A stretch of DNA of 63,985 bases, counting the filler, from an uncultured bacterium (GTDB lineage Bacteria > CAYSBA01), in the NCBI GenBank assembly GCA_964429075.1. It is 14 parts of 14 records of this genome, joined end to end, with 100 filler letters (N's around TTAATTAATTAA, not from the genome) between each part and the next. Parts side by side here need not be neighbours in the genome. Positions count along the whole stretch, not along the records: positions 9,491 to 14,097 come from CAYSBA010000141.1; 13 more parts are not named here. One strand, given 5' to 3'. Each line of letters begins with the position of its first letter. The stretch's first letter is position 1. Shown here piece after piece: positions 9,491 to 51,394 of the stretch. The notes beneath the pieces are model-generated. The model was not told the DNA's origin, made no database searches, and saw only the letters and a program-made list of their open reading frames with translations. A program made the translations under genes and the position numbers.

Positions 9491-9987
9491 ATATTTGGGA
9501 GGTATACTCTCGTATTGCAGGTGGTATACTGTACATTGGAATTCCTCTATCATTTTTAGTAAGACTCCATATGCTTGATCCTAAATGGGTTATAGTTGCC
9601 TTTATAGAGGTGTGGCTTACTGATACATTTGCTATGTTTGGTGGGATGATGTTTGGCAGGCATAAGCTTGCTCCTGTTGTAAGTCCCAATAAGACAAAAG
9701 AGGGATTTATTACAGGTATCCTGGGCGGTATAATCGGAATATGGATCGGTATTACTCTAACCGGAATTTTTATCGAAATTCGGCATGTAATTTTTCTTGG
9801 TATCTTGATGTCTATCTTCGGTCAGCTTGGTGATCTGTTTGAATCATTATTGAAACGAAGTTCGGGAGTTAAAGATTCTGGAACTATTTTACCAGGACAT
9901 GGCGGCATCCTGGATAAGATAGATTCTCTTTTATTTGCCTCTCCACTTTTGTTTTTGTATCTTGAAAATGTACTGGGTTATGTTTAA
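9491..9987 (+). CDS. cdsA: Phosphatidate cytidylyltransferase, 5'-truncated
   Basis: SPNKTKEG, GDLFESLLKR..GVKDSG.ILPGHGGILD signature. Confidence 0.95.
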
Positions 9988-10051
9988 CTCTGAGCTAAAA
10001 GATGTGTCGATATATAGGCAATAGTATTAATAGATCATGGAGGGTTAGAAA

Positions 10052-11569
10052 ATGACAGATGTAAGAAGAGATTTGATACTAAAAAATCTTAGAGAGACTC
10101 AGGTTGCCACAATCTCCACCAGGGGAAGAGATTCCATCAGAAGCAGACTTATGCATTTTGCTGTAGATGAAGATTTTAATTTTTATCTTGCATCAATGAA
10201 AGGGGATCCAAAGATAGACCAGATGACAAAAGATCCAACAGTAGGACTCCTTGTCTTTAATAGATCAGGCGATATGTACGAATGGTCTGAGACAGAGATT
10301 GAGGGCAATGTCAGCATCTTAAAAGAAGAAAAAGAAAGAACAAAGGCAGAAAGACTTTTAAAAGAGGTCTCCCCAGTAGTAAAGGGTATGGTAGAATCTG
10401 GTGCCGGAAATATGCTGGAATACCTGATTGTAAAACCCAAAAGGATACAATTTCGAATCTTTGGTGAGATTGTAAAGGGGAAGGTTCCCGATGTGATAGA
10501 ATTTCAAACAGAAAATAAAAATACTGTAGCGAAGGATATTGTTGATATAAAAAAGATTTTGCATCAATTTAAGTCGGCGCTACGGCTTCCATTTTTAACA
10601 GCGACCATTCTACCAGTTGTCACGGGAGCACTTCTTTACTTTCATGAGACAGGTAATTTGAACTGGTTTTATTTTATCCTATCTCTGGTGGGTGCTTCAT
10701 TTTTACACCTGAGTGTAAATCTATTTAACGACTATTTTGATCATTTAAATGGTTGTGATGAAGAAAACAAAGAATTTATAAGACCCTTTACAGGCGGTAG
10801 CAGGGCAATTCAAAGTGGTATATTTAGACCATCGATTATTTTATTATGGGCGATTGTTTTTCTTTTAGGCGGCAGTCTAATTGGACTGTACTTTTTATAT
10901 GTTGTTGGATTCAAGCTACTATGGATCGGACTAATTGCGATATTCAGTGTACTGTTTTATGTAAACAGAAGATTTTCACTCGCAAGTATTGGTCTTGGAG
11001 AGCTTGCAGTATTTTTAAACTTTGGACCCCTTGCAGTCCTTGGATCATATTTGGTACAGTCCGGCAGATTCTCTTTTGAGGCTATATTGGTCTCCCTTCC
11101 TCTTGGATTCCTGATAACAGCCGTACTCTATGCTAATGAATTTCCAGATTATGTAGCAGATAAAAAAACTGGTAAATGGAATCTCGTTGTAAGACTGGGG
11201 AGGATCAGGGCAAAGTGGGGTTATTTATTACTTATAGCAGCATCTTATGCATCTGTTCTATACCTTGTTGGTAACGGTATTCTTCCAAAATATGCGTTAA
11301 TCATCCTAGTTACCCTTCCCATATCTTTCTTTGCTATAAAGGTTCTTTTCAGGTACCATGAAGATACTGCTAAACTTGCACCCGCACTTGCTGCAACTGT
11401 TATTCTTCATCTTGTAATCGGTTATCTTATAGCAATCTCACTACTTTTTAGAGACAATATTAATATCCTGATGATAGTTTTGTATGCTGTTGGTGTGTTG
11501 TTTACTATAAAGAAGGGTATTGAGCTTGTGCGTGCAATGAGTGGAATCCTAACAGTTCATTCCAGTTGA
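10052..11569 (+). CDS. menA: Fusion: pyridoxamine-5'-phosphate-oxidase-like flavin-binding split barrel (aa ~1-150) + 1,4-dihydroxy-2-naphthoate polyprenyltransferase (MenA/UbiA family)
   Basis: N-term VATIST...RSRLM...K..Q...P.V.L pattern; C-term NLFNDYFD, PFTGGSR, GLGE, ANEFPDYVADKKTGK motifs with multiple TM helices; good SD (GGAGG). Confidence 0.85.
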   Translation: MTDVRRDLILKNLRETQVATISTRGRDSIRSRLMHFAVDEDFNFYLASMKGDPKIDQMTKDPTVGLLVFNRSGDMYEWSETEIEGNVSILKEEKERTKAERLLKEVSPVVKGMVESGAGNMLEYLIVKPKRIQFRIFGEIVKGKVPDVIEFQTENKNTVAKDIVDIKKILHQFKSALRLPFLTATILPVVTGALLYFHETGNLNWFYFILSLVGASFLHLSVNLFNDYFDHLNGCDEENKEFIRPFTGGSRAIQSGIFRPSIILLWAIVFLLGGSLIGLYFLYVVGFKLLWIGLIAIFSVLFYVNRRFSLASIGLGELAVFLNFGPLAVLGSYLVQSGRFSFEAILVSLPLGFLITAVLYANEFPDYVADKKTGKWNLVVRLGRIRAKWGYLLLIAASYASVLYLVGNGILPKYALIILVTLPISFFAIKVLFRYHEDTAKLAPALAATVILHLVIGYLIAISLLFRDNINILMIVLYAVGVLFTIKKGIELVRAMSGILTVHSS

Positions 11570-11573
11570 GGAT

Positions 11574-12548
11574 ATGGCTGAGATACTTGACCAGAAAAGT
11601 TTTAAGGTCCTATTCGAAAGGTCACTTGAGGGCTTTCTGACCTCTATGGATTTTCCTCTAAATGAACAGATAAAAGAGATCTCCATGGCAGGTGGTAAGA
11701 GGATCAGACCCTATCTGGTATACCTATGTGCACTCCAGAGTGGATTTGATGATATCGATACTATTACAAATGCCGGCCTTGTGGTTGAGTTGATTCATAC
11801 CGCAAGCTTAATACATGACGATCTAATTGATAACTCAGACTTTCGAAGGGGCAAGATGACTCTTCACAAACGCTGGGACTATAAAGTAGCCATGCTTGCA
11901 GGTGACCTTACTCTCATCAGGACATTTTTTATCATTGACAGTTTGCAGGACAGGATTCCATCTCTTCTGTTTGAATCCACCTCTACGCTTGTAGAGATGG
12001 TGGAAGGTCAGGTCCTTGAGGGAGCGTGTTCTCAAATAAAGGTACCGGATATTAAGACCCTAGAGATCATAAATGAAAAAAAGACAGCCTCACTCTTTGG
12101 ACTTGCCTTTTTTGTAGGTGTATCCTTAGCATCAGAAGATGACGAAAAGATCAAAAGGGCCAAAGAGGCAGGACGGTACTTCGGCCTTTTGTTTCAGCTT
12201 GTAGATGACCTTCTTGATATATTTGGCACAATTGAATCTACAGGGAAGAGTCCTCTGACAGATATTAAAGAGGGTCATCTAAAGATACCCTATGTTTTCA
12301 CCTATCAAAAGGATCCAACGATCCTCTCTTTAATAAGGGAGTTTCGCGTGGATAAGAAGATAGAGATTGCTGAAGAGATAAAGGAAAGGATCAAAAAGAC
12401 AGCAAGAAAAGAGATAGTCAAGCTTATCGATAGATACTGTGTACAGCTCAAAGATAGTCTGTCAAAGGCGTTTCCTGTTGATAAGCCTGAAATTGTAACA
12501 CCAATTGTTGATAATTTATATCATAAAGCAAGGGAATTAATTGGCTGA
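11574..12548 (+). CDS. Polyprenyl diphosphate synthase (long-chain, HepT/IspB-like)
   Basis: GGKRIRP, ELIHTASLIHDDLID...RRG (FARM), KTA, FQLVDDLLD (SARM). Confidence 0.92.
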   Translation: MAEILDQKSFKVLFERSLEGFLTSMDFPLNEQIKEISMAGGKRIRPYLVYLCALQSGFDDIDTITNAGLVVELIHTASLIHDDLIDNSDFRRGKMTLHKRWDYKVAMLAGDLTLIRTFFIIDSLQDRIPSLLFESTSTLVEMVEGQVLEGACSQIKVPDIKTLEIINEKKTASLFGLAFFVGVSLASEDDEKIKRAKEAGRYFGLLFQLVDDLLDIFGTIESTGKSPLTDIKEGHLKIPYVFTYQKDPTILSLIREFRVDKKIEIAEEIKERIKKTARKEIVKLIDRYCVQLKDSLSKAFPVDKPEIVTPIVDNLYHKARELIG

Positions 12549-13185
12549 GGGACCTTCCTGGCATATCTATTCTTGGCTTGCCAGATATTATGATCTATTT
12601 GCTTCATTACTACTGTTGCCCCTTGGAGGGATAAGATCTTTTTATAAAACCTTTCTTGACTCAGCTGGTATAAAAAAGGGTAAAAGGTTAAGATGGTGTG
12701 ATCTCTGTTGTGGTACAGCAAATCTATTCAGATTCTGTGATTGTAGTAATCTTGATTCGTGGCCACTGATTGTTGGTCTTGATGGATCAAAACAGATGCT
12801 TGAAAAGGCAAAGGGTCGCTCAATAAAAGCCTTTTTTGTTAGAACAGATGTTACTCAGATACCCATTGTGAGTAATCAATTCGATGTCTGCACAATGTCG
12901 CTCTGCCTCCATGAGATGGAAAAAGAAAAAAGAGATCAGGCGTTAAAAGAGGTACACAGGATATTAAAAGAGGATGCCAGGCTTGCGATCCTCGATTTTG
13001 GGACACCTAAAAATGTTTTGCTTAGGTTCATACTCGACACCTACCATAAAAATTTTGAACATCCATCCGCATTGAGTTTCACAAGGGAAGACCTATCTTC
13101 TACGCTTTATAGGTTGGGATTTAAAAATGTTATAGAGATCCCGTATAAAATGGGAATTTTTCGAATAATTTTGGCAGAAAAATAA
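12541..13185 (+). CDS. UbiE/MenG-family SAM-dependent methyltransferase
   Basis: ARYYD, DLCCGTA motif I, GLDGSKQML, EVHRILK; overlaps upstream gene by 8 nt. Confidence 0.8.
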   Translation: MAEGPSWHIYSWLARYYDLFASLLLLPLGGIRSFYKTFLDSAGIKKGKRLRWCDLCCGTANLFRFCDCSNLDSWPLIVGLDGSKQMLEKAKGRSIKAFFVRTDVTQIPIVSNQFDVCTMSLCLHEMEKEKRDQALKEVHRILKEDARLAILDFGTPKNVLLRFILDTYHKNFEHPSALSFTREDLSSTLYRLGFKNVIEIPYKMGIFRIILAEK

Positions 13186-13386
13186 AAATACTATAAGTTT
13201 AATTTTTTTTTGAACTTTTTTAAAGATGTTAGTGAAATTTCATATTCTAAAAACATGCATGATTCTACATCGTTAGAACAGTAAAAATTTAAGAAGATAC
13301 TTGGAAATTGATCAAAGATGGTATAAGCAATAAAGGGTTTACTTGTTGGGTTTGAAATTATTCTTACTCTGTTTTAAATACAACAT

Positions 13387-14097
13387 ATGAAGAAAAGAGC
13401 AATTGGAGTCCATGTATCGATAAGAGGAGGTATCTCTGAGGCTATTAATAGGGCTGAATCCTATGGTTGCACCGCTTTTCAGATCTTTACTGCAAATCAA
13501 AGGCAATGGAAGAGTTATCCCCTCAAAGATGAAGATGTTGAGCAGTTTAAAAAGAGACTCAAATCATCTACAATAAGATACGTTGTTTCACACGATTCAT
13601 ATCTTATAAACCTTGGAACGACAGACGAAAAAAACTTTAAAAGATCTGTGGACTCGCTCTCTGCTGAACTTATTAGATGTAGTCAGATAGATATCCATGA
13701 TGTGGTAATCCATCCAGGCTCACATCTTGGTAAGGGTGAAAAAACAGGTCTGTTAAATATTATAGATGGTATCTTACAGAGTTATGAAAAGGCAGGGTTC
13801 CCAGATGTGAGACTTCTTCTCGAGACTACTGCCGGACAGGGTACAAATCTTGGATACCGATTCGAACATCTTTCGTTCATTGGAGAGAAGATAGAAAGAC
13901 ATGGAATAAAATGGGGCGTATGTTTTGATACCTGTCATGTATTTGCTTCTGGCTACGACTTTGTAGAAGATGGCGGCTACGAAAAGGTGTTTGAAGAGTT
14001 CGATAGAGTGGTCGGTCTTGGGAGATTAAGACTTTTTCACATTAACGACTCTAAAAAGCCACTTGGCAGCAGAGTTGATAGGCACGAGCATCTTGGA
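13387..14097 (+). CDS. nfo: Endonuclease IV, 3'-truncated
   Basis: GVHVS, HDSYLINL, HPG, LETTAGQG, CFDTCH, HINDSK..GSRVDRHEHLG. Confidence 0.96.
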
Positions 14098-14197: not shown

Positions 14198-14384
14198 CAT
14201 CAATCTCTTTTAGTCTCTTTTCTTCAATTAGTTTAAAGTAAGATCTATCCGGGATCCAGTCACTATCATCAATATGATGAGTAACTACTGTATGTACATC
14301 GGGCAGTGTCAAAGCAAGTTGTTTGCCCACCCTTCCTGCACCTACAATACAGATACCCCCTTTTTTATTCAGGGAATAGGTCAA
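14198..14384 (-). CDS. Rossmann-fold protein N-terminus (possibly DUF2520/oxidoreductase type), 3'-truncated
   Basis: ICIVGAGRVG dinucleotide-binding motif; ATGA overlap with ggt stop. Confidence 0.55.
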
Positions 14385-15985
14385 TCGATCACCTCTACAA
14401 CACCATCTCTTCTTCTGTCACCGGCCCCACCAAAAAAGCCAGAGCTGGGATCGTATACAACCATATTAACGCCACCGAAAAACATATTTTGTAGTTTAAA
14501 TTCTGTAACCCTGTAACCTTTTAGACTCTCAAACAGTTTCAGACGAATCTGATCATCAAGATCAAAGGTCTCTATATAGAGTTCGGCATTTGGTGGTGCA
14601 CCTTCCACATGAATCCTCGAAGAGTTGACTGCACTATCAGGGGCAAGATTATTGTCTAATATATTAATTAGACATTGTAGTATTGCCGTTCTAATGCGAT
14701 TACTGCCCCCAGTCCCAAGGACAGCAATTATCTTATCATCCTTTTCGACAAGTGTAGGTGCCATCATGGATGTAATGGTTTCGCCTGGTTTTCCATCTTC
14801 AAAACCGCCCGGGCTTATATCTTCCTCACCAAGAAAATTGTTCAGGATTATACCGGTATCGGGGATTGTGACAGCAGAGTTTTCTCCGTTTGATATGGTG
14901 ATCCCGATTGCATTACCATATTCATCCATAACAGACTTGTGCGTGGTGTTTTCAGGACCTTCATGCGGGTTGTTGATTGTCCCCTGGTTTAAGTTTAAGG
15001 TTGCATAATAGTCAATTAGCCTTTCATTGAGAATATTTTTACTATTATGTGGGTCAAAATCATTCTTTCTGAATATGTTCATTCGTGTGATTAGTTCGAC
15101 CAGTAGTTTTAGATAGTCAAGGCTTTTATAAGGAGGTAATCTATCTGCTAATCGCTGGAGAAGGGATAGACAGAAGGCAACGAGTGTCCCACCAGATGAG
15201 GGTGGGGGATTTGTATGTATCCTTTTATCTCTATAGTTAAAACTAAAGGGTTTTCTCTTTATAACCCTGTATTGCTTCAGGTCTTCATATGTGATAAGAC
15301 CACCATCTTCAAAGTGATTTGCAAATTTTCTGGCAATCTCACCTTCATAAAATGGATAAGGTCCTTCTTTTGCAAGCAGTTCGAATGTCTCAGCAAGCTT
15401 TTGATTGCGAAAATATTCGCCTTCTCTCAGGAGGTGTCCCTTGGGTGCAAATAGGGATTTCATCTCATCATTTGATAGCAGTATACTTTTTAGCACACTA
15501 AATATAAAAGCCTGTCGATTTGAAATAGGACACCCCTCTTTTGCCATTTCGATGGCAGGAGATATTACGACATCAAAGGGGAGTTTCCCTGCCTCTTCAT
15601 GTATCTGATATAGACCCTTAATTGCACCTGGTACCGCCACCGATGCCTTCCCGATGTGAAATATCTGTTTTGTTGGTCCAAAGTCTGCAACAACATCTTT
15701 GAAATCAACCTTTTTATTGTGATTTCTACCAAGCCCTGGAAACCTTGAAAAAAAATCGTATAACACTACCTCTTTTGAGCCCTCTTTTCTAAGTATGGCA
15801 AATCCAGAACCGCCTGCACTTGTCAAGGCAGGTTCACTTAAAAACGAAACGAAAGATGCAGCGACTGCGGCATCTATTGCATTACCTCCCTCTTTAAGCA
15901 TAGCTGTACCGGCGCTTGTTGTATGGACATCACCAGCAGCTACTACACCCTTTGTTGGTCTAAATTTTCTTAAAAACTCAGCCAT
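14381..15985 (-). CDS. ggt: Gamma-glutamyltransferase family protein
   Basis: GGNAIDAAVA, VAVPG, NTTH nucleophile motif, LGTGGSNRI, GDRRRDG; SD GGAGG before ATG 15985. Confidence 0.92.
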   Translation of the reverse strand: MAEFLRKFRPTKGVVAAGDVHTTSAGTAMLKEGGNAIDAAVAASFVSFLSEPALTSAGGSGFAILRKEGSKEVVLYDFFSRFPGLGRNHNKKVDFKDVVADFGPTKQIFHIGKASVAVPGAIKGLYQIHEEAGKLPFDVVISPAIEMAKEGCPISNRQAFIFSVLKSILLSNDEMKSLFAPKGHLLREGEYFRNQKLAETFELLAKEGPYPFYEGEIARKFANHFEDGGLITYEDLKQYRVIKRKPFSFNYRDKRIHTNPPPSSGGTLVAFCLSLLQRLADRLPPYKSLDYLKLLVELITRMNIFRKNDFDPHNSKNILNERLIDYYATLNLNQGTINNPHEGPENTTHKSVMDEYGNAIGITISNGENSAVTIPDTGIILNNFLGEEDISPGGFEDGKPGETITSMMAPTLVEKDDKIIAVLGTGGSNRIRTAILQCLINILDNNLAPDSAVNSSRIHVEGAPPNAELYIETFDLDDQIRLKLFESLKGYRVTEFKLQNMFFGGVNMVVYDPSSGFFGGAGDRRRDGVVEVID

Positions 15986-16859
15986 TTCTCCTCCTGCCAA
16001 TCTTCAGTATGTCTGCAATGTTTGCATTATCATCAAAAACAAGATCAAACTGTTTTGCCTTACCGGAAAGTATTGTGGTAACACCAGGACCATGACCAGA
16101 CAAAAAGGAACTTGAATGTACGACTATGCCTATGGTTAGCATCCCCTTTTTATAGGTCCTGCCGTAGAGACAATCATGGTCCTCTATAGCCACAATGTCA
16201 CCTAATCTTAGATCATTAAGTCTGTATTTTTCAAGTATCTTTTGATCAGATACCATAATGTCATAATCTCCAGATGATATATCGTTAAAACCGAGCCCGG
16301 AGCCCATAAGGTAAGGGGGTACTTTTTTTCTGACCTTTATAGATAGCTTGTTTTCTTTAACTTCTGCAATCTTAATAAAAAGCGCTGGATCAATATTGAC
16401 GACTCTGATTTCTTTAAAACCATCTATCTCAAGTCCTTGCCCATATGCTTCAATCAACATAGAGTCGCCATAGTTTATTTTTGAAAGCACCTCATCAGAG
16501 AAATCGATCAGTACATGTTCGACACCTCCATGAAATCCAGTTACAACACCTTCACTGCCTTTTGCATCGCCAGATGTAATACGAACTCTATTACCGATAC
16601 ACGCAAGTGAATTGAGAGAGCGATTTTTCCTCGAATTTCTATCTTTTTCATCCGATACAGCAGATACACAGGGCTCTATATGATCTCCCTGCCATCCAAA
16701 TGCAGGATCACCTACCTTAACATTGTATACAATCCCTCCAACTGAAGGGAGTATCATTGGATGTCCATCATGAGAAATCTCAAAGGGTGCAAAGACAATA
16801 GGATAGATTACACTGCATGGTACACCAAATTTTACGAGTTTGTCTGTATTAAGTTTCAT
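15978..16859 (-). CDS. DUF4438 family protein
   Basis: LPSVGGIVYNVKVGD...GDHIEP, GSGLG...GDYDI, GHGPGVTT motifs; SD GGGAG before ATG 16859. Confidence 0.8.
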   Translation of the reverse strand: MKLNTDKLVKFGVPCSVIYPIVFAPFEISHDGHPMILPSVGGIVYNVKVGDPAFGWQGDHIEPCVSAVSDEKDRNSRKNRSLNSLACIGNRVRITSGDAKGSEGVVTGFHGGVEHVLIDFSDEVLSKINYGDSMLIEAYGQGLEIDGFKEIRVVNIDPALFIKIAEVKENKLSIKVRKKVPPYLMGSGLGFNDISSGDYDIMVSDQKILEKYRLNDLRLGDIVAIEDHDCLYGRTYKKGMLTIGIVVHSSSFLSGHGPGVTTILSGKAKQFDLVFDDNANIADILKIGRRRNG

Positions 16860-16898
16860 AACATAACTCCCTGCTAACTGATTTTTTAGCAAGAATTC

Positions 16899-19700: not shown

Positions 19701-22025
19701 ATGAGAACAATACTAAAACTATTTATCCCTGTTTTACTTCTCTTTCTTTTAATAATATCCTGTACAAGAAGCGCAGTTTATCAAAAAGATCTGTTTGAGC
19801 CACCACTGTTACAGGGAGGGGATAATCTGTCAGAATATACTACCCTTGTGGGTAATATCAACTTTGGTGACACAGTGGAATACAGTACAGAAGAAAGAAC
19901 TAATGCCTATCTATTCGATTCAGACGGTACTAATTATCTTTATGTGCACATAGAGTCAGATGCAGATGCTGTAGGATTGTTTATATATGGACCAAGGGAT
20001 GAAAAGGGATATTTTGGAAGCCCCAGGGTTAAATCTGTTTCAATGTCCTCTGATGTATCGATTAGGGGCTTTAAGATTGAAGAAAATGGCACCTATTTAA
20101 TATTTATCATTTTTTCTTCTAAGAAAAATATTGTTGAATACAGATTGTCTTTGGGATGTGTTGGTAACTGTACAGAGCCTCCATGCGAAGATATTTCATG
20201 CGGCATATTCTGTGGCAGTGGAAGATTGGATCTTGACGAAAATTTCTGTCTGAGGAGGTGTAGGTGTGTTGATGCTGCATTGGACCAGAATAATAAATAT
20301 GGTGAAGATTGCACATCAATATGTGAATCTGAAAGTTATGATCCAGTATGTGGCATAGATGGTAAAACATATGCAAATATTTGTGAGTTAAAGTGTTATG
20401 GGGTACAGCTTGATCATGGTGGTGAGTGCAGCAGAGAATGTAACTTTGATACAGACTGTGGTCCTTATGAGAAATGTATTGATGGTAGTTGTGTGATCTT
20501 TGAATGTGATTGTCCTGATCAATGGGATCCAGTATGTGGTTCTGATGGATACAGCTACAAAAACAGGTGTGAATTGTTTTGCAGTGGTGCAACCTTTGTA
20601 TCTGAAGGTGTCTGCGCTGGTAACATGTGTCTGTCTGATCAAGACTGTGGCCAATCGCAATATTGCAAGATTCCCCAGGGATGTGATGGGACACAATGTA
20701 GCGGCATCTGTATGCCAAAGAATGATCAATGTCAGAATTTTGATTGTGCCGCAGGTTTTGTTGCTGTTTTTTCAAATGGTGAATGTAGATGTATTCCAGA
20801 TCCAGAATGTCCAACCATTTACTGTCCCTATGGCTGCAATTATATTGTAGATGAGTCAACAGGATGTCTCGACTGCTCATGTCTTTCTGATGGTGAATGT
20901 GCCCAGGATTCTGATTGTAAGGAGGGTGAGATCTGTCGTTATGACTTATGTCCAGCACCACCGTGTTTCCCGGGGACCTGTAGTCCGCCATATTGCAGCT
21001 CTTTTGTATATCCAGAGGATTACTGTGAATCTGGCATCTTAAAAAGATCTGGGAAGGACAATAAGGGTTGTCCAAGACCATTGAGTTGTATAGGCGCCGG
21101 ATGCGAGAATTCGTCTGATTGTGCAGAAACCCAGCTATGCATCGATGGAGATTGTTTACCGGCTGATTTCTGTCATGAAGATGTGGATTGTGAAGAAGGT
21201 AAAATATGTAACCTTTTTAATGATACATATGGAGTATGTGTTGTTGGTTGTAGAAAAGACAGTGACTGTGAGTCAGACAGGGTATGTGAAGATGGTCGTT
21301 GTAGAAAGAGGTGTGAGAATCAGAGTGATTGCGAAATCGGTGAGATATGCGACAAAGAACATAGACGTTGTAAAAGTGCGAGGTGTTTGAGTGACCAGGA
21401 TTGTCCTTCTGGATACAATTGTATAATGGTGGATGAGAACATCGGTATGTGTAATCCACAGTCAGAATACAGCTGCAATCCTTCAGGATGCTATGGAGAG
21501 ATCTGTAGTAGTGTACCTGTAACAGATCTTGAAGGATGTAACTGGCATGAGGAATACAACTGTCTGATATACTCTGAGTGTGTGCCCTATGGAGAGCATG
21601 ATTGTGCATGGAAATCTACAGAGTCTTTCTTAGATTGTCTGGCATCAACTGGATCTTTTGTTGGTGAGTGCAAAAACGATCTTGATTGTAATGCACCATT
21701 TGAATACTGTAACAATAATGTATGCGAGCCAAAGAGATGTGAATGCCCCGATAATATAGATCCTGTATGCTCTTCAGATCGAATATATATGAACTGGTGT
21801 CATATGGCCTGTGCTGAATGGATGGATAATCCTTACACCACATGCAGCAGTAATTCTTTAAACTGCAAGGAAGATAAAGATTGTCCATTTTCCTGGACAA
21901 TGTGCAGGCAATTTGAGAATGTGGCCTTCTGTGTACCAAAGCCATTTTGCACAACAGATATTGATTGTAAAAATGTAAAATGTGTTCACATATCTGCAGG
22001 CTCTGGCTACTGTGATAACAAATAG
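19701..22025 (+). CDS. Cys-rich surface lipoprotein with three Kazal domains, antistasin-like units, Dickkopf-like CxxDxDC repeats and an eight-cysteine-cluster-like domain
   Basis: Lipobox LLIISC; YDPVCGIDGKTYANIC, WDPVCGSDGYSYKNRC, IDPVCSSDRIYMNWC; repeated CxxDxDC; GCYGEIC. Confidence 0.8.
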   Translation: MRTILKLFIPVLLLFLLIISCTRSAVYQKDLFEPPLLQGGDNLSEYTTLVGNINFGDTVEYSTEERTNAYLFDSDGTNYLYVHIESDADAVGLFIYGPRDEKGYFGSPRVKSVSMSSDVSIRGFKIEENGTYLIFIIFSSKKNIVEYRLSLGCVGNCTEPPCEDISCGIFCGSGRLDLDENFCLRRCRCVDAALDQNNKYGEDCTSICESESYDPVCGIDGKTYANICELKCYGVQLDHGGECSRECNFDTDCGPYEKCIDGSCVIFECDCPDQWDPVCGSDGYSYKNRCELFCSGATFVSEGVCAGNMCLSDQDCGQSQYCKIPQGCDGTQCSGICMPKNDQCQNFDCAAGFVAVFSNGECRCIPDPECPTIYCPYGCNYIVDESTGCLDCSCLSDGECAQDSDCKEGEICRYDLCPAPPCFPGTCSPPYCSSFVYPEDYCESGILKRSGKDNKGCPRPLSCIGAGCENSSDCAETQLCIDGDCLPADFCHEDVDCEEGKICNLFNDTYGVCVVGCRKDSDCESDRVCEDGRCRKRCENQSDCEIGEICDKEHRRCKSARCLSDQDCPSGYNCIMVDENIGMCNPQSEYSCNPSGCYGEICSSVPVTDLEGCNWHEEYNCLIYSECVPYGEHDCAWKSTESFLDCLASTGSFVGECKNDLDCNAPFEYCNNNVCEPKRCECPDNIDPVCSSDRIYMNWCHMACAEWMDNPYTTCSSNSLNCKEDKDCPFSWTMCRQFENVAFCVPKPFCTTDIDCKNVKCVHISAGSGYCDNK

Positions 22026-28272: not shown

Positions 28273-28566
28273 TTCAAAAGGGCATATGATATGGCATATG
28301 TACAAAAGGGCCTACTTGCATCAGCTATAGAGCTTGTAAAAAAGGGAGGCATTATTCTATATTCTGTCTGTTCTTTTATAAAGGATGAGACTGATAGGGT
28401 GCTTGAGTGTTTTAAAAAGGATGTCGATATATTATCGATACAATATTTTGAAAAATTATCCGAAATGGGACATCTGATAAAGACAGATTGTGGATATCTT
28501 ACCAGACCAAGCGAGGAGAATTCAATATATGATATCCTATTTTTTTCAGTTATGAAAAGGAGGTAA
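28273..28566 (+). CDS. rsmB: 16S rRNA m5C methyltransferase RsmB/NOP family, C-terminal fragment
   Basis: Q..LL..A..LVKKGGIILYSVCS motif; upstream of rpe, a common gene order. Confidence 0.75.
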   Translation, partial: FKRAYDMAYVQKGLLASAIELVKKGGIILYSVCSFIKDETDRVLECFKKDVDILSIQYFEKLSEMGHLIKTDCGYLTRPSEENSIYDILFFSVMKRR

Positions 28567-28568
28567 CA

Positions 28569-29222
28569 ATGGTAAAGTTGACTCCATCAATACTTGATGC
28601 TGATTTTCTTGGTCTAAAGGAGATACTTATCGAGATAGAAAAGGAAGGTATTGACTGGCTACACCTTGATGTTATGGATGGACATTTTGTGCCAAACTTG
28701 ACCTTTGGTCCACCGGTTGTGAGATCTTTGAGAAAAAATTTTACCGGTATCCTGGATGCTCACTTGATGGTGGATACACCAGAAAGATTTATTGATGGCT
28801 TTGTAAAGGCCGGTGTTGATTATATAACGATTCATCTGGAAGCAGACAGACACATTCATCGTTCCCTTTCAGATATAAAAAGAAAGGGTCTAAAAGCGGG
28901 TGTGGCAATCAATCCCGGAACACCTGTGATTATGGTAGAACCACTGCTTGAGATTGTTGATCTTGTCCTTATCATGAGTGTAAACCCGGGTCTTGGAGGC
29001 CAGTCTATAATAGAAGGATGTCTTGAAAAGATAGATTATTTAAAGGAGAAAAAAAGGGGTGGGGATTTATCCTTTCAAATCCAGATAGATGGAGGTATAA
29101 AGCTTGATAATATAGACAGGGTCATCGATACTGGAGTTGATCTTGTGGTTGTTGGGTCTGCCATTTTTAAACAAAAAGATCCAAAAGGAGCAATCCGTGC
29201 ATTTAAGAAAAGATTGAAATAG
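28569..29222 (+). CDS. rpe: Ribulose-phosphate 3-epimerase
   Basis: PSIL.ADF, HLDVMDGHFVPNLTFG, MSVNPG.GGQ, IDGGI. Confidence 0.97.
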   Translation: MVKLTPSILDADFLGLKEILIEIEKEGIDWLHLDVMDGHFVPNLTFGPPVVRSLRKNFTGILDAHLMVDTPERFIDGFVKAGVDYITIHLEADRHIHRSLSDIKRKGLKAGVAINPGTPVIMVEPLLEIVDLVLIMSVNPGLGGQSIIEGCLEKIDYLKEKKRGGDLSFQIQIDGGIKLDNIDRVIDTGVDLVVVGSAIFKQKDPKGAIRAFKKRLK

Positions 29223-29259
29223 ATTCATTTAACTACAAAAGTGTTAACATAAAAGGAGA

Positions 29260-30562
29260 ATGAATTTTATTTTTAAAAGATATCGTTTGATTACCATTGT
29301 TACTACAATCTTGGCAATTATAGGAACTCTTTTATCTGCAAGGCTAAAGATCAAGAGCAGCTTTTCTGATCTTCTGCCCGAAAAGGAACGAGTTGTTAAA
29401 GATCTCAAAAAAATTGATCACTTACTTGGTGGAATTGGTTTTTTAATAGTAACTATAGAGGGTAAAGATGAAAGACTTATTAAAGATACGATGATAAGGC
29501 TTGCTAAAAGTTTCAGAAAAGAGAAAGATCTTGTTAGATTTGTTAGATATAGATCGGGCAGAGACTTTGTAGAGAGATATGGTGGTTACTATTTATCACT
29601 GCAGGAGTTAAATAAGATATATGATCTTTTAATCCGCTGGAAAGAGAAGGAGATTGCAAAGAGGGTACCGGGCTACTTTGATCTTGAGGAGGAAAGATCT
29701 CAGGATCCTGAAAAAGAGTTGTTGAAGATTCTGCGAAACAAAAAAACAGGTTCCTTAATGGAAGACGATCTTTTGTATGATAAAAAGACAAAAATGGGGA
29801 TAGTGCTTATTAAGCCTGTCAGGTCTTCTGTCGACCTTAACTTTTCCAAAAGACTCCTCGATACATCAAAGAGAATAATTCAATCCGTTAAGAGAAATGG
29901 ACTGAGAATAACCCTTACAGGCCGATATGTAACAGGACGCGAAGAGATAGGACTGATAAAGAAGGACCTCGCCAAGACTTCCATTGTCGCCATTACCCTT
30001 ATCTCAATACTTTTGATGATTTTTTTTAACAGACCAGGCAGGGTACTTATAATGTCGATGGCCCTTTTGTTTGGAATAGCTATTAATTTTGGTATCGTCT
30101 ATCTTACATTGAATTATCTGAATGTAATTACAGTTATACTTGTTGCAATACTAATGGGTCTTGGTATTGATCATGGTATACATTTTCTTTATAGATATCA
30201 ACAACTCAGGAATCAGGGTCTTTCGCTCAATAGCGCCCTATCAGATACACTGCATAGAACTGGGAAGAGTATTTTTACCTCAGCACTCACTACTGCGATT
30301 GCCTTCTACTCAATAACCTTTACAGAGTTTAAGGGTATATCACAGTTTGGATTTATTGCAGGCACCGGGATGATTATTACCATGTGTGCAATGCTAATCT
30401 TTCTGCCGGCCTTTCTGATCTTTCTTGAGAAAGACCTTAAGATACCCTTTAATCTAAATCTGAAAGAGCCCACAATCCCTGAGGGGAGATTCCCGATGAC
30501 AGCTATTATCATAACTCTATCTTTTCTTGTTACTGTATATGCATCCACCCTTCTACCGGATA
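29260..30562 (+). CDS. MMPL/RND family transporter, N-terminal half only (cut at palindrome centre)
   Basis: TM + periplasmic domain + TM bundle with GLGIDHGIHF, TTAIAF, QFGFIAGTG; residues past 30562 are antisense read-through. Confidence 0.85.
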
Positions 30563-31865
30563 TATCCGGTAGAAGGGTGGATGCATATACAGTAACAAGA
30601 AAAGATAGAGTTATGATAATAGCTGTCATCGGGAATCTCCCCTCAGGGATTGTGGGCTCTTTCAGATTTAGATTAAAGGGTATCTTAAGGTCTTTCTCAA
30701 GAAAGATCAGAAAGGCCGGCAGAAAGATTAGCATTGCACACATGGTAATAATCATCCCGGTGCCTGCAATAAATCCAAACTGTGATATACCCTTAAACTC
30801 TGTAAAGGTTATTGAGTAGAAGGCAATCGCAGTAGTGAGTGCTGAGGTAAAAATACTCTTCCCAGTTCTATGCAGTGTATCTGATAGGGCGCTATTGAGC
30901 GAAAGACCCTGATTCCTGAGTTGTTGATATCTATAAAGAAAATGTATACCATGATCAATACCAAGACCCATTAGTATTGCAACAAGTATAACTGTAATTA
31001 CATTCAGATAATTCAATGTAAGATAGACGATACCAAAATTAATAGCTATTCCAAACAAAAGGGCCATCGACATTATAAGTACCCTGCCTGGTCTGTTAAA
31101 AAAAATCATCAAAAGTATTGAGATAAGGGTAATGGCGACAATGGAAGTCTTGGCGAGGTCCTTCTTTATCAGTCCTATCTCTTCGCGTCCTGTTACATAT
31201 CGGCCTGTAAGGGTTATTCTCAGTCCATTTCTCTTAACGGATTGAATTATTCTCTTTGATGTATCGAGGAGTCTTTTGGAAAAGTTAAGGTCGACAGAAG
31301 ACCTGACAGGCTTAATAAGCACTATCCCCATTTTTGTCTTTTTATCATACAAAAGATCGTCTTCCATTAAGGAACCTGTTTTTTTGTTTCGCAGAATCTT
31401 CAACAACTCTTTTTCAGGATCCTGAGATCTTTCCTCCTCAAGATCAAAGTAGCCCGGTACCCTCTTTGCAATCTCCTTCTCTTTCCAGCGGATTAAAAGA
31501 TCATATATCTTATTTAACTCCTGCAGTGATAAATAGTAACCACCATATCTCTCTACAAAGTCTCTGCCCGATCTATATCTAACAAATCTAACAAGATCTT
31601 TCTCTTTTCTGAAACTTTTAGCAAGCCTTATCATCGTATCTTTAATAAGTCTTTCATCTTTACCCTCTATAGTTACTATTAAAAAACCAATTCCACCAAG
31701 TAAGTGATCAATTTTTTTGAGATCTTTAACAACTCGTTCCTTTTCGGGCAGAAGATCAGAAAAGCTGCTCTTGATCTTTAGCCTTGCAGATAAAAGAGTT
31801 CCTATAATTGCCAAGATTGTAGTAACAATGGTAATCAAACGATATCTTTTAAAAATAAAATTCAT
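30563..31865 (-). CDS. Mirror copy of MMPL transporter fragment (probable artefact)
   Basis: Identical translation to the 29260 ORF. Confidence 0.4.
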
Positions 31866-31902
31866 TCTCCTTTTATGTTAACACTTTTGTAGTTAAATGA
31901 AT

Positions 31903-32556
31903 CTATTTCAATCTTTTCTTAAATGCACGGATTGCTCCTTTTGGATCTTTTTGTTTAAAAATGGCAGACCCAACAACCACAAGATCAACTCCAGTATCGA
32001 TGACCCTGTCTATATTATCAAGCTTTATACCTCCATCTATCTGGATTTGAAAGGATAAATCCCCACCCCTTTTTTTCTCCTTTAAATAATCTATCTTTTC
32101 AAGACATCCTTCTATTATAGACTGGCCTCCAAGACCCGGGTTTACACTCATGATAAGGACAAGATCAACAATCTCAAGCAGTGGTTCTACCATAATCACA
32201 GGTGTTCCGGGATTGATTGCCACACCCGCTTTTAGACCCTTTCTTTTTATATCTGAAAGGGAACGATGAATGTGTCTGTCTGCTTCCAGATGAATCGTTA
32301 TATAATCAACACCGGCCTTTACAAAGCCATCAATAAATCTTTCTGGTGTATCCACCATCAAGTGAGCATCCAGGATACCGGTAAAATTTTTTCTCAAAGA
32401 TCTCACAACCGGTGGACCAAAGGTCAAGTTTGGCACAAAATGTCCATCCATAACATCAAGGTGTAGCCAGTCAATACCTTCCTTTTCTATCTCGATAAGT
32501 ATCTCCTTTAGACCAAGAAAATCAGCATCAAGTATTGATGGAGTCAACTTTACCAT
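31903..32556 (-). CDS. rpe: Mirror copy of rpe (probable artefact)
   Basis: Identical translation to the 28569 ORF. Confidence 0.4.
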   Translation of the reverse strand: MVKLTPSILDADFLGLKEILIEIEKEGIDWLHLDVMDGHFVPNLTFGPPVVRSLRKNFTGILDAHLMVDTPERFIDGFVKAGVDYITIHLEADRHIHRSLSDIKRKGLKAGVAINPGTPVIMVEPLLEIVDLVLIMSVNPGLGGQSIIEGCLEKIDYLKEKKRGGDLSFQIQIDGGIKLDNIDRVIDTGVDLVVVGSAIFKQKDPKGAIRAFKKRLK

Positions 32557-32558
32557 TG

Positions 32559-32852
32559 TTACCTCCTTTTCATAACTGAAAAAAATAGGATATCATATAT
32601 TGAATTCTCCTCGCTTGGTCTGGTAAGATATCCACAATCTGTCTTTATCAGATGTCCCATTTCGGATAATTTTTCAAAATATTGTATCGATAATATATCG
32701 ACATCCTTTTTAAAACACTCAAGCACCCTATCAGTCTCATCCTTTATAAAAGAACAGACAGAATATAGAATAATGCCTCCCTTTTTTACAAGCTCTATAG
32801 CTGATGCAAGTAGGCCCTTTTGTACATATGCCATATCATATGCCCTTTTGAA
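32559..32852 (-). CDS. rsmB: Mirror copy of rsmB fragment (probable artefact)
   Basis: Identical translation to the 28291 ORF. Confidence 0.4.
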   Translation of the reverse strand, partial: FKRAYDMAYVQKGLLASAIELVKKGGIILYSVCSFIKDETDRVLECFKKDVDILSIQYFEKLSEMGHLIKTDCGYLTRPSEENSIYDILFFSVMKRR

Positions 32853-47752: not shown

Positions 47753-50700
47753 TTAAGGATGGTTGGCAAGATTCAGACTGCTATTCCCAGTTGAATCGAA
47801 GCTAATATACCAGAGCTTGTAGTTGCCAGTATTACTATATATAACACTTGGATCAACCTGCCATGTGCTACCGTTGTTTGATGAGGGTATGATTAAGGTT
47901 GAAAATTGGTAGTTTAAAAGATCAGAAGTAGAGGCCGATAGAATACTCCAGTTATCATTATTGTCCTGACCGGCATAAAATACCTTCAATATATTACCAT
48001 TATAGGATATCCACGGTGATGATACTGCTCTCTCAGTATAGACGCCACCATCTCCATTATTGATAACTGTACCAAGCCTTGACCAGATTATACCATCTAT
48101 CGAATAGGCCAGCAGGATTCTCCACTGCCAGTCCGGCACATAGGTATCGGGTATATTTACCTTTTGTTTACTACCTGCATAAAGCATATAATAAACATCT
48201 CCGATCTTAATAACTGCAGGATGTGCAACTGCCCATTTATCATCGCCTCCTCCGGACGGTGAAAGGACAGGTTCTTTGTTGTTCTGTACATCCCAGCTCT
48301 TACCATCAGTAGATGTAGCATAGCCTATATACCACATAAAATTGTTCCCTTCCCATCTGCCTCCAGCGTACCACATCTTATAAACACCTGCCTGTTTATC
48401 AAATATTACAGATGGTTGTGAACAGTAATTATTCTCCCACCAACTATTGCAATTACTATTGAAGGTTACCTGTTGAAAATTCTGCCATGTCTTACCATCT
48501 GAAGAATCGGCATACCATATGCTCGATGTATTGTTGTTTTGATCTATCTCTGTGTACCACATCCTGTAGATATTGGCATCGCTGTCAAAAAGTACAGAAG
48601 GGCTGGCAATCGATTTATTATTTGAACCACTGAATAGCTGCTGGTTATAGCTCATTGTCATTGGAGAATTAGCAACAACGGTAATCTCATCCCAAGACCT
48701 ATCACCAAAATAATCATAAACTGTAAGCCTTATTACATATGTACCTGGCTGAGTTATATCCTTCAACCATGCATATTTTGAGTCTGCGCTGGTTATTGTT
48801 GCCATACTCAGTGAAGGTGCACTCTCAATTGTCCAGTGATAACCAAGTGTATCATTATCAGGGTCATTGCTACCAGAGCCATCAAGCTTAACAATATCTC
48901 CCACATCAATGTCTAAATTATTGCCAGCGTTAGCTACAGGTGGTCTATTTATTACTTCTATTGAAACGGTTTCAAGATCACTCTGAAGCTGACCATCAGA
49001 CACAACCAACCCTATGGTGTATGTACCTCTTGCATCTGCTTTAAATGAGGCTGCGTCGTTGTTGATATTTAGCTGTGCCTGGCTCCCTGATGGCCTGGAG
49101 ATCCACATCCAGCTGTAAATAAGGACATCACCATTTGGATCGTAACTTGAACTGCCACTTAGATTAAATGTATCATCTTTATATCCAACTAACCTGTTGT
49201 CCTGAACTGTTATTATTGCAACAGGTGGAGTGTTGCCCAGAACCGCAGTAACCCTTACAATATCTGAATCTGAAGCGCCTTTATCATCAGTAACTATAAG
49301 CTCTATTTCATAATCTCCTTCAATATCGGGTGTAAAACTAACTGTCTGTGATGTTGTATTCTGCAGCGAGATAGAACTGCCAGATGGTTTTGAAATTAAG
49401 TACCAGTTGAAGGTTAAGGTATCACCGTTTGGATCGTAGCTGCCTGAACCATCAAGTGTAACAGAGCTATTAACATCAATTACTCTGTCTGGGCCTGCAT
49501 CAGCAACAGGGGAAGCGTTACCAGAGACGGTTGTAATAGTGACCCTATCAGAATCTGTTGCACCATTCTGATCTGATACCACAAGGATGACTACATAGCT
49601 ACCCACAACATCAGGGGTAAAACTGTATGTAATACTGTTTGAATCAATTGTTGATACTGCACTTTCTGTAGGTTTTTCTACAAGGTGCCAGCTGAAATTT
49701 AGGTTATCACCATTTGGATCATAGCTGCCTGAGCCATCCAATGTTACAGACTCGCCAACATTTACTACTCTATCACCACCGGCATCTGCAACAGGTGCAG
49801 CATTTCCATATACGACAGTTAGTGTTACCCTATCAGATGATGACAATCCTTCTTGATCTGTAACTACGAGTTCAAAGACATAGCTACCAACAACGTCTGG
49901 AGTTACCAGAAGAGTCGCGCTGTTAGTAGAACTGTCAACAGATAGACTGCTATCCTGTGGTTTGTTTACTATGTGCCAGCTAAAAACAATGGGATCACCG
50001 TTTGGATCGTAGCTGCCTGAACCATCCAGTGTTACACTTTCTCCAAGTTTAATTGTTACATCCCTTCCTGCATCTGCAACAGGTGATGCATTCCCATACA
50101 CAGCTGTGATGGTTGTTCTATCTGAGGATGTTGCCCCGTACGGGTCTGAAACAATTAGCTCCAGGGTATAAATACCCTCAACATCTGGAGTGAATTTTAT
50201 AAGAGAAGAGGTTGTATCTTGAAGTGTAACAGCACTGTTTGATGGTTTTGTGACAAAATGCCAGCTGTAACTAAGAGAATCACCATTTGGATCATAGCTT
50301 GATCCACCATCAAGGACAACCTCATTACCCACTTCTATAATCCTGTCCTGTCCGGCATCGGCCACAGGGGTTGCATTTCCAGATATAGCTGTCACAGTAA
50401 CCCTATCAGATGAGCTTGCCCCTTTTATATCAGATACTACAAGCTCAAAGATATATTGACCTTCAACATCCGGAACAAATGATAGAGTTTGATCATTTGT
50501 TCCGCTCAGGCTGATAGAACTCGAAGATGGCTTCTGAATGAGAAACCAGCTGAAAAAGATTGCATCACCATTTGGATCAAAGCTTTTACTTCCATCAAGG
50601 GTTGTTTCCTGACCAACTGTAGCAAGTGTGTCCATCCCGGCATCTGCAATAGGTGGTGCATTACCTGATATAACATCTATTTTGATCTCATCGGTATCTG

Positions 50701-51325: not shown

Positions 51326-51365
51326 AATTCCTCCTGACCTTACTATTACATAGATATTTAGATGA

Positions 51366-51394
51366 ATTATAATCCTAAAATTACCTAATTTCAA
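51366..51394 (-). promoter_or_regulatory. Sigma70 promoter of PKD lipoprotein
   Basis: TTGAAA-17 nt-TATAAT on minus strand. Confidence 0.7.

Follow-up and report, generated by a model that had tools for sequence, protein, structure and literature searches.

Why would an enzyme that attaches the side chain of menaquinone carry a redox-type split barrel at its N-terminus? The question is raised by a locus of an uncultured bacterium (GTDB lineage Bacteria; CAYSBA01; GCA_964429075.1), located in the 63,985 nucleotides of DNA that were analysed here (the window). The window is a chain of pieces of about 4.6 kb spliced with N spacers; therefore, true adjacency is given only within a piece, here positions 9491-14097, which contain a partial cdsA, the fusion gene, a synthase gene, a methyltransferase gene and a partial nfo-like gene. 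The fusion ORF (10052..11569, + strand, 505 aa, ATG start, stop included) encodes a split barrel, a linker and a MenA-type prenyltransferase. It is followed on the same strand by ORFs for a trans-polyprenyl diphosphate synthase (11574..12548, 324 aa; PF00348, 180.2 bits) and a UbiE/MenG-like class I SAM methyltransferase (12541..13185, 214 aa, TTG start; PF01209). The ORF listing gives a gap of 4 nt between the fusion stop and the synthase start and an overlap of 8 nt between synthase and methyltransferase, exactly as in a preliminary description of this DNA. The fusion gene is translationally coupled to the other two and, as in MenA systems, the prenyltransferase has genes for a polyprenyl synthase and for a methyltransferase of UbiE-like type beside it. 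The earlier reading of the operon as a quinone module holds in the form of a tail-end module: together the three genes cover the last steps of menaquinone synthesis, in which the side chain is made and attached and the ring is methylated.

A 505-aa ORF of this kind could be an artefact in which two genes are united by chimeric assembly or by a stop or frameshift that was overlooked, and the window does derive from a fragmented metagenome assembly and shows a perfect fold-back palindrome in one of its pieces. A separate Logan assembly of run X1, probably the source sample, spans positions 9979-10724, from the barrel through the linker into the first transmembrane helices, and shows 0 differences and 0 gaps; positions 10725-10915 lie outside its coverage. 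In each of the 80 genome loci retrieved, the N- and C-terminal parts are contiguous and share a single frame. Full-length fusions make up 59 of the 120 best protein matches (clusters), and the linker residues G143, P145 and P146 are conserved family-wide. Since the X1 assembly bridges the junction without indels and all 80 loci are in frame, we dismiss the artefact reading, the probability of which is negligible: the fusion is real. Two of the observations that the preliminary description had named as able to overturn it, a stop or frameshift between the domains and homologues that are always separate, unlinked genes, are contradicted by these data, all 80 loci kept being fused. It is near certain that one polypeptide comprises the barrel, a linker helix and a MenA/UBIAD1-type membrane prenyltransferase.

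The C-terminal part (residues 179-505, 10586..11566, + strand) has about nine transmembrane helices. It matches UbiA (PF01040) on residues 187-440 with 103.9 bits and passes the TIGR00751 (menA) equivalog cut-off in NCBIfam (119.4 vs 102.15, residues 183-461); on every PRK06080 sub-model its score stays far under the equivalog cut-off, e.g. 165.6 vs 264. Both Asp-rich motifs, N223-x-x-N226-D227-x-x-D230 (10718..10741, + strand) and D366-x-x-x-D370 (11147..11161, + strand), fall into invariant columns of alignments A1 and A3. The AF2 model (pLDDT 83.5) matched UBIAD1, DGGGP synthase and AfUbiA in Foldseek with UBIAD1 on top (8djk, E 1.1e-7), which was also the sole match of the C-domain sequence in the PDB (3.5e-12). 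By cut-off, motifs and fold the C-domain is a MenA-type UbiA enzyme, its naphthalenoid acceptor being putative. Canonical MenA (TIGR00751; E. coli / M. tuberculosis type, ~300 aa) shares both Asp-rich motifs and the UbiA fold, whereas the fusion has in addition an N-terminal split barrel of 150 residues and the linker helix. On the menA model fused proteins score ~91-130 bits vs ~175-257 bits for Chloroflexota MenA of ~300 aa. UBIAD1, the animal enzyme that converts menadione to MK-4, comes closest in structure and is the one sequence relative with a solved structure (~21% identity to the window protein in the structural alignment); unlike the fusion, it is a eukaryotic ER/Golgi protein without a fused redox domain and depends on external reduction.

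The two downstream ORFs are less sharply classified. The synthase reached no NCBIfam equivalog (HepT 138.6 vs 456.55, IspB 111.4 vs 412); A77/S78, small residues at positions -5/-4, precede its DDLID motif, which by the rule we assume suggests a long-chain synthase. Over its full length it is 39% identical to the synthase downstream of an unfused relative (locus L091). The methyltransferase matches Ubie_methyltran (PF01209) with 50.5 bits vs a cut-off of 20.1, covering 163 of 233 positions, and is below the MenG/UbiE cut-off of TIGR01934 (77.3 vs 158.35); it shares 26% identity with the UbiE adjoining the fusion in L055.

By profile match and fold, the N-domain (residues 1-150, 10052..10501, + strand) belongs to the PNPOx-like split barrels. 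The Pfam match to PNPOx_N (PF01243) on residues 12-106 is marginal (28.3 bits vs cut-off 28.1). AF2 modelled the strands and helices with a pLDDT of mostly 84-92, and Foldseek returned 3db0, 2i02, 1rfe, 6m0a and 3ec6, with many PNPOx-like structures at probability 1.00. With the family profile A2, 3ec6 (GSP26; 4.4e-9) and 3db0 (6.9e-9) were found in the PDB; free PNPOx_N proteins of 150-165 aa turned up in a profile search. These nearest solved barrels are structural-genomics proteins without assigned function. Such GSP26/Lin2891-type proteins (COG3871-like) have the same fold, basic residues aligning to K50 and K54 of the fusion and a dimeric assembly, which is predicted for the fused domain; they are, however, free proteins of ~130-140 aa, and two features set the fused barrel apart, M34-H35, which is specific to its family, and an extension at the C-terminal end that contains G143-x-P145-P146.

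Two conserved motifs, R30-x-R32-x-M34-H35 and S48-M-K50-G-D52-P53-K54 (10139..10213, + strand), form a candidate cofactor-phosphate site. A set of 22 fusions shows no variation at R30, R32, M34, H35, Y45, K50, D52, P53, K54, E80, E82 and G85, and the motif residues are nearly invariant across 27 N-domains; in a Chloroflexota subgroup (L050/L052/L053) the motifs are degenerate, H35 being lost and the basic motif incomplete. The conserved basic residues R30, R32, K50 and K54 are candidate contacts to FMN, FAD or heme, and the region around them may correspond to the FMN-phosphate site of PNPOx-family structures. The barrel is probably a small flavin-binding domain. The preliminary description had also considered F420, which is unlikely as a general cofactor because CofD (F420 synthesis) is over its cut-off in no more than 8 of the 50 genomes with the fusion; together with a score of 19.1 vs a cut-off of 79.05 on TIGR03618, this led us to reject an F420-dependent PPOX-class identity. 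The F420H2-dependent FDOR-A/Ddn type, split-barrel proteins too, are quinone reductases acting on menaquinone-type quinones at the membrane, from which the fusion differs in its low TIGR03618 score and in the rarity of CofD in its genomes.

The structure prediction of the barrel dimer that had been proposed earlier gave an ipSAE of 0.90 (0.91, 0.90 and 0.90 in three runs) vs 0.00 for the best control, with 100% contact agreement between runs and a partner pLDDT of at least 90. Among proteins of solved structure, 20 of 30 homodimers reach this ipSAE mark, as does 1 of 23 single chains, and since split-barrel dimers have already been solved, the pass may reflect no more than likeness to these. 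The predicted interface includes residues 27-33 (with R30 and R32) as well as E80, E82 and G85; the model thus predicts a homodimer with the candidate cofactor site partly in the interface. A linker helix (residues 158-177, 10523..10582, + strand; AF2 helix H158-177) leads from the barrel to TM1, and the unfused relatives P0045 and P0047 start at about the aligned position. TM1 comprises residues 179-200 and TM2 residues 205-232, ending in N226-D227-x-x-D230. With the barrel before TM1 and the first Asp-rich motif after TM2, the model would place the barrel on the active-site face.

The fusion is widespread. At least 264 species genomes, bacterial as well as archaeal, encode relatives, and the idea of a rarity of this window was not borne out; full-text literature searches gave no paper on the fusion, in agreement with the earlier statement that none had been characterised. 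Among the 80 loci kept for analysis, a synthase is located nearby in one and a UbiE-type methyltransferase at +1/+2 in seven; a free second split barrel is a neighbour in only two, and no neighbour family occurs in more than eight. The tight coupling to synthase and MenG, which had been presented as part of the system, therefore does not belong to the fusion as such. L091, whose MenA domain is the nearest relative and which lies in a quinone context beside an nqrABCDEF-like operon, is unfused yet retains the menA-synthase pair; this pair is shared by unfused relatives and not tied to the fusion. In the tree the C-domain of the window is sister to L091 (SH-aLRT 100) within a mostly unfused clade, and going by these relatives the barrel is dispensable for the core enzyme. 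The fused state requires at least five changes on the tree (53 fused and 50 unfused proteins, 16 undetermined ones set aside); a single fused clade was only borderline rejected in the AU test (p 0.038), the tree having been seen before the test.

Where does the head group come from in organisms with the fusion? In the 50 fusion-bearing genomes surveyed, MenB is over the cut-off in one and MenD in the same one, and PF02621 (MqnA/D) has two strong matches in ten and any match in 13; neither route was found in 36 of the 50, these absences coming largely from MAGs of unstated completeness. Unlike canonical MenA, the fusion relatives are thus mostly found in genomes without DHNA synthesis. UbiE/MenG is over the cut-off in 32 genomes and absent at that level from 18, including most archaeal ones. 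Among the 36 route-less genomes, 20 have UbiE/MenG over the cut-off and nine a cytochrome bd quinol oxidase. Fusion, UbiE and CydA occur together without a head-group route in six genomes (G003, G036, G038, G044, G045 and G050), four of which have loci with only 26-31% N-domain identity, among them L053, also a member of the degenerate-motif trio. In two futalosine-pathway genomes (G001, G002) a separate UbiA gene adjoins the mqn genes, and the fusion is thus an extra paralogue there. The window has 34 other large ORFs, and no men or mqn gene was found among them. A pathway reduced to its tail end, with the head-group genes missing as in the 20 route-less genomes with UbiE/MenG, is known from DHNA auxotrophs with only menA and ubiE, namely Porphyromonas pasteri and Tannerella spp.; P. 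pasteri grows on DHNA and weakly on menadione (passages of PMC9704088). The same genotype occurs in anaerobic dichloromethane degraders (PMC10344839). Two Proteiniphilum genomes of our survey (G044, G045) carry the fusion.

We infer that the fusion is a tail-end or salvage menaquinone prenyltransferase with a dimeric flavin-type domain that keeps the naphthoquinone acceptor reduced. The barrel would be cytoplasmic, sharing the membrane face of the active site, and would bind a flavin, most likely FMN and not F420, at the dimer interface. There it could reduce the quinone form of a naphthalenoid head group (oxidised DHNA, 1,4-naphthoquinone or a menadione-like compound) to the hydroquinone, or keep it reduced, if the UbiA-type enzyme can prenylate the hydroquinone only. 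Menaquinone might in this way be built from a scavenged or oxidation-prone head group, and such a salvage role fits because most fusion genomes are without a known head-group pathway. UBIAD1 prenylates a scavenged naphthoquinone only once it is reduced: without DTT no MK-4 was formed, from which its authors concluded that "reduction of MD is required for prenylation" (passages of PMC4398444). This mechanism for the acceptor is a tentative hypothesis, possible rather than probable. Against it stand the heme-binding split barrels among the Foldseek matches (6m0a, 5bnc and 3gas), the L050/L052/L053 subgroup, in which H35 and some basic-motif residues are gone, and the unfused sister L091. In addition, many fusion holders are anaerobes, in which DHNA should stay reduced unaided.

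The preliminary description had suggested, as one of several possibilities, that the barrel is a tethered reductase which re-reduces demethylmenaquinone for methylation by MenG/UbiE. This would make it an analogue of NDC1/NdbB, type II NAD(P)H dehydrogenases that, as separate proteins, reduce demethylphylloquinone before MenG acts; we know of this requirement only from oxygenic phototrophs. The translationally coupled methyltransferase, the bona fide UbiE in seven loci, the 32 genomes with UbiE/MenG and the predicted position of the barrel on the active-site face are all in line with the suggestion. It is nevertheless weak, because the coupling to synthase and MenG is no property of the fusion, and we consider it quite improbable: 18 genomes have no UbiE/MenG over the cut-off, the methyltransferase of the window itself is under it, and the product that MenA makes from DHNA is already a quinol. 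In family and in fold the barrel is unrelated to NDC1/NdbB, and an identity as type II dehydrogenase is rejected as Pfam finds no pyridine-nucleotide-disulphide oxidoreductase family (Pyr_redox) on the fusion. The likeness lies in the concept of a reductase devoted to the making of a naphthoquinone and is an analogy in role alone; NDC1/NdbB act after prenylation, whereas for the fused barrel we propose an earlier action. The data are better matched by a tethered redox domain whose target is the prenyl acceptor than by a reductase feeding MenG.

It might also be that the barrel is not catalytic and serves as a dimerisation scaffold, or as a flavin- or heme-binding sensor of redox state or ligand that tunes the prenyltransferase, for example limiting toxic quinone or DHNA levels. 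The strong predicted homodimer would suit this, as would the heme-binding barrels (with 9vyc as a further fold match), the family-specific invariant H35 as a possible ligand, the subgroup that keeps the domain after losing the basic motif, which fits a structural role, and the close unfused relatives that function without a barrel. We regard it as unlikely, for in the main group basic residues of the cofactor-phosphate type are invariant across bacteria and archaea, and the neighbourhoods of the 80 loci hold no conserved sensor output or regulatory partner. Alternatively, DHNA may not be used at all: the barrel would oxidise, reduce or aromatise another precursor, to which the prenyltransferase adds the tail, giving a quinone de novo. 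The PNPOx family does include oxidases that aromatise ring systems, and both the 36 genomes without MenB/MenD or any MqnA/D match and the lower menA scores of the fused proteins speak for another precursor. Yet no conserved partner genes that might supply a head group were found around the 80 loci, a free second split barrel is a rare neighbour, the C-domain falls within a group of ordinary MenA-like proteins that are unfused, and for the pattern of menA and ubiE only, salvage in cultured bacteria already offers an explanation (passages of PMC9704088). This reading is distinctly improbable, and very improbable is its extension, in which the fusion is a third, undescribed entry to respiratory naphthoquinone-type quinones with the barrel preparing a non-DHNA head group. 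If it were true, holders lacking the Men and futalosine routes would make their quinone de novo, with no scavenging.

MenA catalyses the membrane step of vitamin-K2 synthesis and is a drug target in pathogens. How prenyl acceptors are kept reduced has, to our knowledge, been studied so far only in plants, cyanobacteria and UBIAD1. Here, at least 264 species of both prokaryotic domains, mostly without a known head-group pathway, encode a conserved MenA that has a redox-type domain built in. Its distribution is observed; its role is proposed from the comparisons above. The fusion may be a dedicated quinone-salvage enzyme, which would bear on DHNA or naphthoquinone cross-feeding in anoxic communities and also on growing "unculturable" quinone auxotrophs, or it may be a missing piece of quinone biosynthesis.

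The open reading frame at 10052-11569 on the plus strand encodes a protein of 505 amino acids in which a split barrel is joined to a MenA-type prenyltransferase, and this fusion is real. The fused architecture had already been claimed in the preliminary description, and it holds: barrel and MenA part were contiguous in all 80 genome loci kept, and a separate assembly of the sequencing run X1 (labelled hot springs metagenome and probably the source sample), which contains the stretch, spans positions 9979-10724 and 11315-13093 with zero indels, leaving 10725-10915 uncovered. An assembly or gene-calling artefact as the origin of the fusion is excluded. With Pfam, the PNPOx_N domain was found on residues 12-106 with a marginal score (28.3 bits vs a cut-off of 28.1) and the UbiA domain on residues 187-440 (103.9 bits). 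The protein passed the NCBIfam menA equivalog TIGR00751 (119.4 vs a cut-off of 102.15) and missed all PRK06080 sub-models.

Two genes follow in the same direction. The polyprenyl synthase (11574-12548, 324 amino acids) matched the Pfam polyprenyl synthetase family with 180.2 bits and passed no NCBIfam equivalog. The methyltransferase (12541-13185, 214 amino acids) matched the ubiE/COQ5 and generic methyltransferase models of Pfam and stayed under the MenG/UbiE cut-off of NCBIfam (77.3 vs 158.35). The tight coupling proposed earlier is borne out by the coordinates, with a gap of 4 nucleotides and an overlap of 8 nucleotides. The window (1-63985) is a composite of roughly 14 pieces of about 4.6 kb and not continuous DNA; each spacer between pieces is made up of 44 N, 12 bases and another 44 N, and a few gaps of 10 N occur besides, so that gene neighbourhood is meaningful inside a single piece only. 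The genuine gene context is therefore restricted to 9491-14097, where the three genes are preceded by a truncated cdsA gene and followed by a truncated nfo-like gene. None of the 34 other large ORFs of the window, located on pieces that are not necessarily adjacent in the genome, belonged to the Men or Mqn families. Among these pieces, the one at 28273-32852 is a perfect palindrome of two 2290-nucleotide arms, 100% complementary and without spacer, so that genes for a ribulose-phosphate 3-epimerase and an MMPL-family protein are present twice, the second time with their order inverted; the piece almost certainly arose when the assembly folded back on itself. On the next piece of the window (14381-16892, minus strand), a gamma-glutamyltranspeptidase gene overlaps a DUF4438 gene (N and C domain), and after the DUF4438 gene comes a 458-amino-acid ORF without Pfam family. 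Two large secreted-type proteins are encoded at 19701-22025 (774 amino acids, Kazal protease-inhibitor domains) and 47753-51394 (1212 amino acids, eight PKD-like repeats).

Relatives of the fusion are found in at least 264 species, as revealed by a scan with one genome per species. Among the best 120 protein clusters, the query itself included, 59 had lengths of 466-530 amino acids at a query coverage of at least 83%, the best being 47% identical. Bacterial holders include Chloroflexota, Paenibacillus, Alkalicoccus, Chitinophagaceae, Proteiniphilum and Aminicenantes, and archaeal holders include Nitrososphaerota, Geothermarchaeota, Thorarchaeota, Thermoplasmata and Methanofastidiosia. Cultured carriers include Paenibacillus spp., Alkalicoccus chagannorensis and Ammoniphilus resinae. 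Despite this wide spread the fusion is rare: of 201 evenly sampled Chloroflexota genomes, which include the unpublished genomes G087 and G230 (no claim depends on either individually), the barrel profile matched only two, both already known carriers. A cross-tabulation of fused and unfused MenA in this phylum failed because of this rarity. Public annotation calls these fused proteins simply MenA, and our full-text literature searches found no paper on a split-barrel-MenA fusion.

The structure predicted with AlphaFold2 is confident (mean pLDDT 83.5, pTM 0.74) and places the barrel at residues 1-150, followed by a helix (158-177) and about nine membrane helices. Alignment of 22 fusions revealed invariant residues in all parts of the protein: R30, R32, M34, H35, Y45, K50, D52, P53, K54, E80, E82, G85, R96 and S107 in the barrel, G143 and P146 in the linker (P145 is nearly so), and the MenA motifs N226-D227-x-x-D230 and D366-x-x-x-D370. 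In a Chloroflexota subgroup (loci L050, L052 and L053), H35 has been lost together with a portion of the basic motif. The best Foldseek match was human UBIAD1 (8djk), the animal enzyme that makes MK-4 from menadione, followed by PNPOx-like barrels of both the flavin type and the heme-binding type. UBIAD1 is also the sole solved sequence relative of the prenyltransferase domain (3.5e-12), and the barrel profile has only GSP26 (3ec6) and Lin2891 (3db0) as solved relatives. Since the barrel precedes the first membrane helix and the first Asp-rich motif ends the second, the barrel should lie on the same membrane face as the active site.

The barrel is predicted to form a homodimer, with a score of 0.90 vs 0.00 for the best control; among proteins of solved structure, this mark was attained by 20 of 30 homodimers and one of 23 single chains. 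The runs showed 100% contact agreement and pLDDT values of at least 90. The predicted interface includes R30, R32, E80, E82 and G85. Because split-barrel dimers have already been solved, this pairing may only show likeness to those structures. A word-based search with residues 1-165 of the fusion found no short free homologues. The profile search against 1.84 billion representatives yielded 570 proteins at E ≤0.001; twelve of the 20 matches examined with Pfam were free PNPOx_N proteins of 150-166 amino acids, the best-scoring short ones being possibly cut fusions, and two were other fusions, joining PNPOx to an MFS transporter (560 amino acids) and to a class-V aminotransferase (544 amino acids; P0182 and P0189). 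Additional matches in the ESM Atlas were PNPOx_N look-alikes only.

The coupling to synthase and methyltransferase, suggested previously as part of the system, does not extend to the fusion in general. With the window proteins as queries, one of 80 genome loci had a synthase near the fusion and three had a methyltransferase, and when the 602 neighbouring ORFs were clustered the largest family was present in only eight loci; a conserved fusion operon was therefore rejected. An obligatory second, free split-barrel partner was likewise rejected, being seen in two of the 80 loci. When the 25 neighbour families with most members were annotated, they included a second UbiA beside the fusion in 4 + 3 loci, IspD/IspF in three to four and PAP2 in a few. 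An unfused UbiA-family gene of about 300 amino acids lies directly downstream of the fusion at L008, L018, L024 and L067, these being several Dehalococcoidales/Chloroflexota loci and one Ginsengibacter locus.

Metagenome loci were also selected by similarity to the window's prenyltransferase domain: of 80 such loci, 14 were fused and 66 had no visible barrel, although 16 of the 66 are truncated so close to the start of the contig that a barrel could have been missed; 20 of the 80 had an adjacent synthase. In a tree of 119 prenyltransferase domains, from which alternate genome loci and all rows below 240 amino acids were omitted, the window protein and the protein at locus L091, its closest unfused relative by the MenA domain, are sisters (SH-aLRT 100) within a mostly unfused clade. 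The fused state requires five changes on this tree, with 16 unsure labels set aside. A tree constrained to group every fused row is worse by 84 log-likelihood units, a borderline result (p-AU 0.038) for a tree seen before testing. L091 has the same gene order of menA followed by the synthase (synthases 39% identical), and both genes are divergent from a six-gene nqrABCDEF-like operon for a Na+-NADH:quinone oxidoreductase, an arrangement located at 2205-10077 of L091. A split-gene form was rejected, with no match to the barrel domain anywhere in the 17 kb of L091. The operon goes with the lineage and not with the fusion. Given the shared gene order and the nqrABCDEF-like neighbour, the clade is quinone-related, and the barrel is an accessory module.

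Gene content was surveyed in 50 fusion-bearing genomes, most of them MAGs of unstated completeness; control genomes gave the expected outcome in every search. MenB and MenD were over the cut-off in one and the same genome, MqnA and MqnD gave two strong matches in ten genomes and weak or fragmentary ones in three more, and 36 genomes gave no indication of a head-group route of either kind. The futalosine genes of Paenibacillus (G001) and Alkalicoccus (G002) adjoin a different UbiA gene, which makes the fusion an additional paralogue in these two. UbiE/MenG was present in 32 of the 50 genomes (20 of the 36 without head-group route) and cytochrome bd subunit I in 16 (nine of the 36). Six genomes, two Proteiniphilum and four Chloroflexota, combine fusion, UbiE and CydA without a head-group route. 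CofD, required for F420 synthesis, was found in only eight of the 50 genomes, and the protein scored 19.1 on the F420 model TIGR03618 (cut-off 79.05); F420 dependence of the barrel was rejected on these two grounds.

These data bear on several explanations for the barrel. A reductase serving MenG, as the preliminary description had envisaged, is weakened by the loose link between fusion and UbiE, a bona fide UbiE being located at +1/+2 of the fusion in seven of 80 loci. The dispensability of the barrel and its degenerate form in the Chloroflexota subgroup would both agree with a domain that is non-catalytic and serves for dimerisation or sensing. A role in a head-group route of a new kind fits the missing Men and Mqn pathways; however, no partner genes for such a route were found.

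The protein belongs to a widespread and uncharacterised group in which a well-known enzyme occurs fused to another domain. The rings that UbiA-type enzymes alkylate are electron-rich. A study of UBIAD1, the nearest solved relative of the prenyltransferase domain, reports that MK-4 was absent without DTT, and its authors concluded that menadione reduction must precede prenylation (PMC4398444). Bacteria with only menA and ubiE subsist on DHNA from their neighbours and less well on menadione (PMC9704088), and the same two-gene pattern is described in anaerobic dichloromethane degraders (PMC10344839). Based on this reduction requirement and on the DHNA users, we propose the barrel as an acceptor-reducing domain: it would be a flavin domain seated at the entrance to the prenyltransferase, where it would reduce the acceptor (naphthoquinone or DHNA) or maintain it in the reduced state. 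The results establish the architecture, its conservation and distribution and the prediction of a dimer, and from them we infer the cofactor, electron donor, substrate and reaction direction. Such an activity would serve salvage or an oxidation-prone acceptor supply, and the synthase and methyltransferase coupled to the fusion in the window complete a tail-end module.
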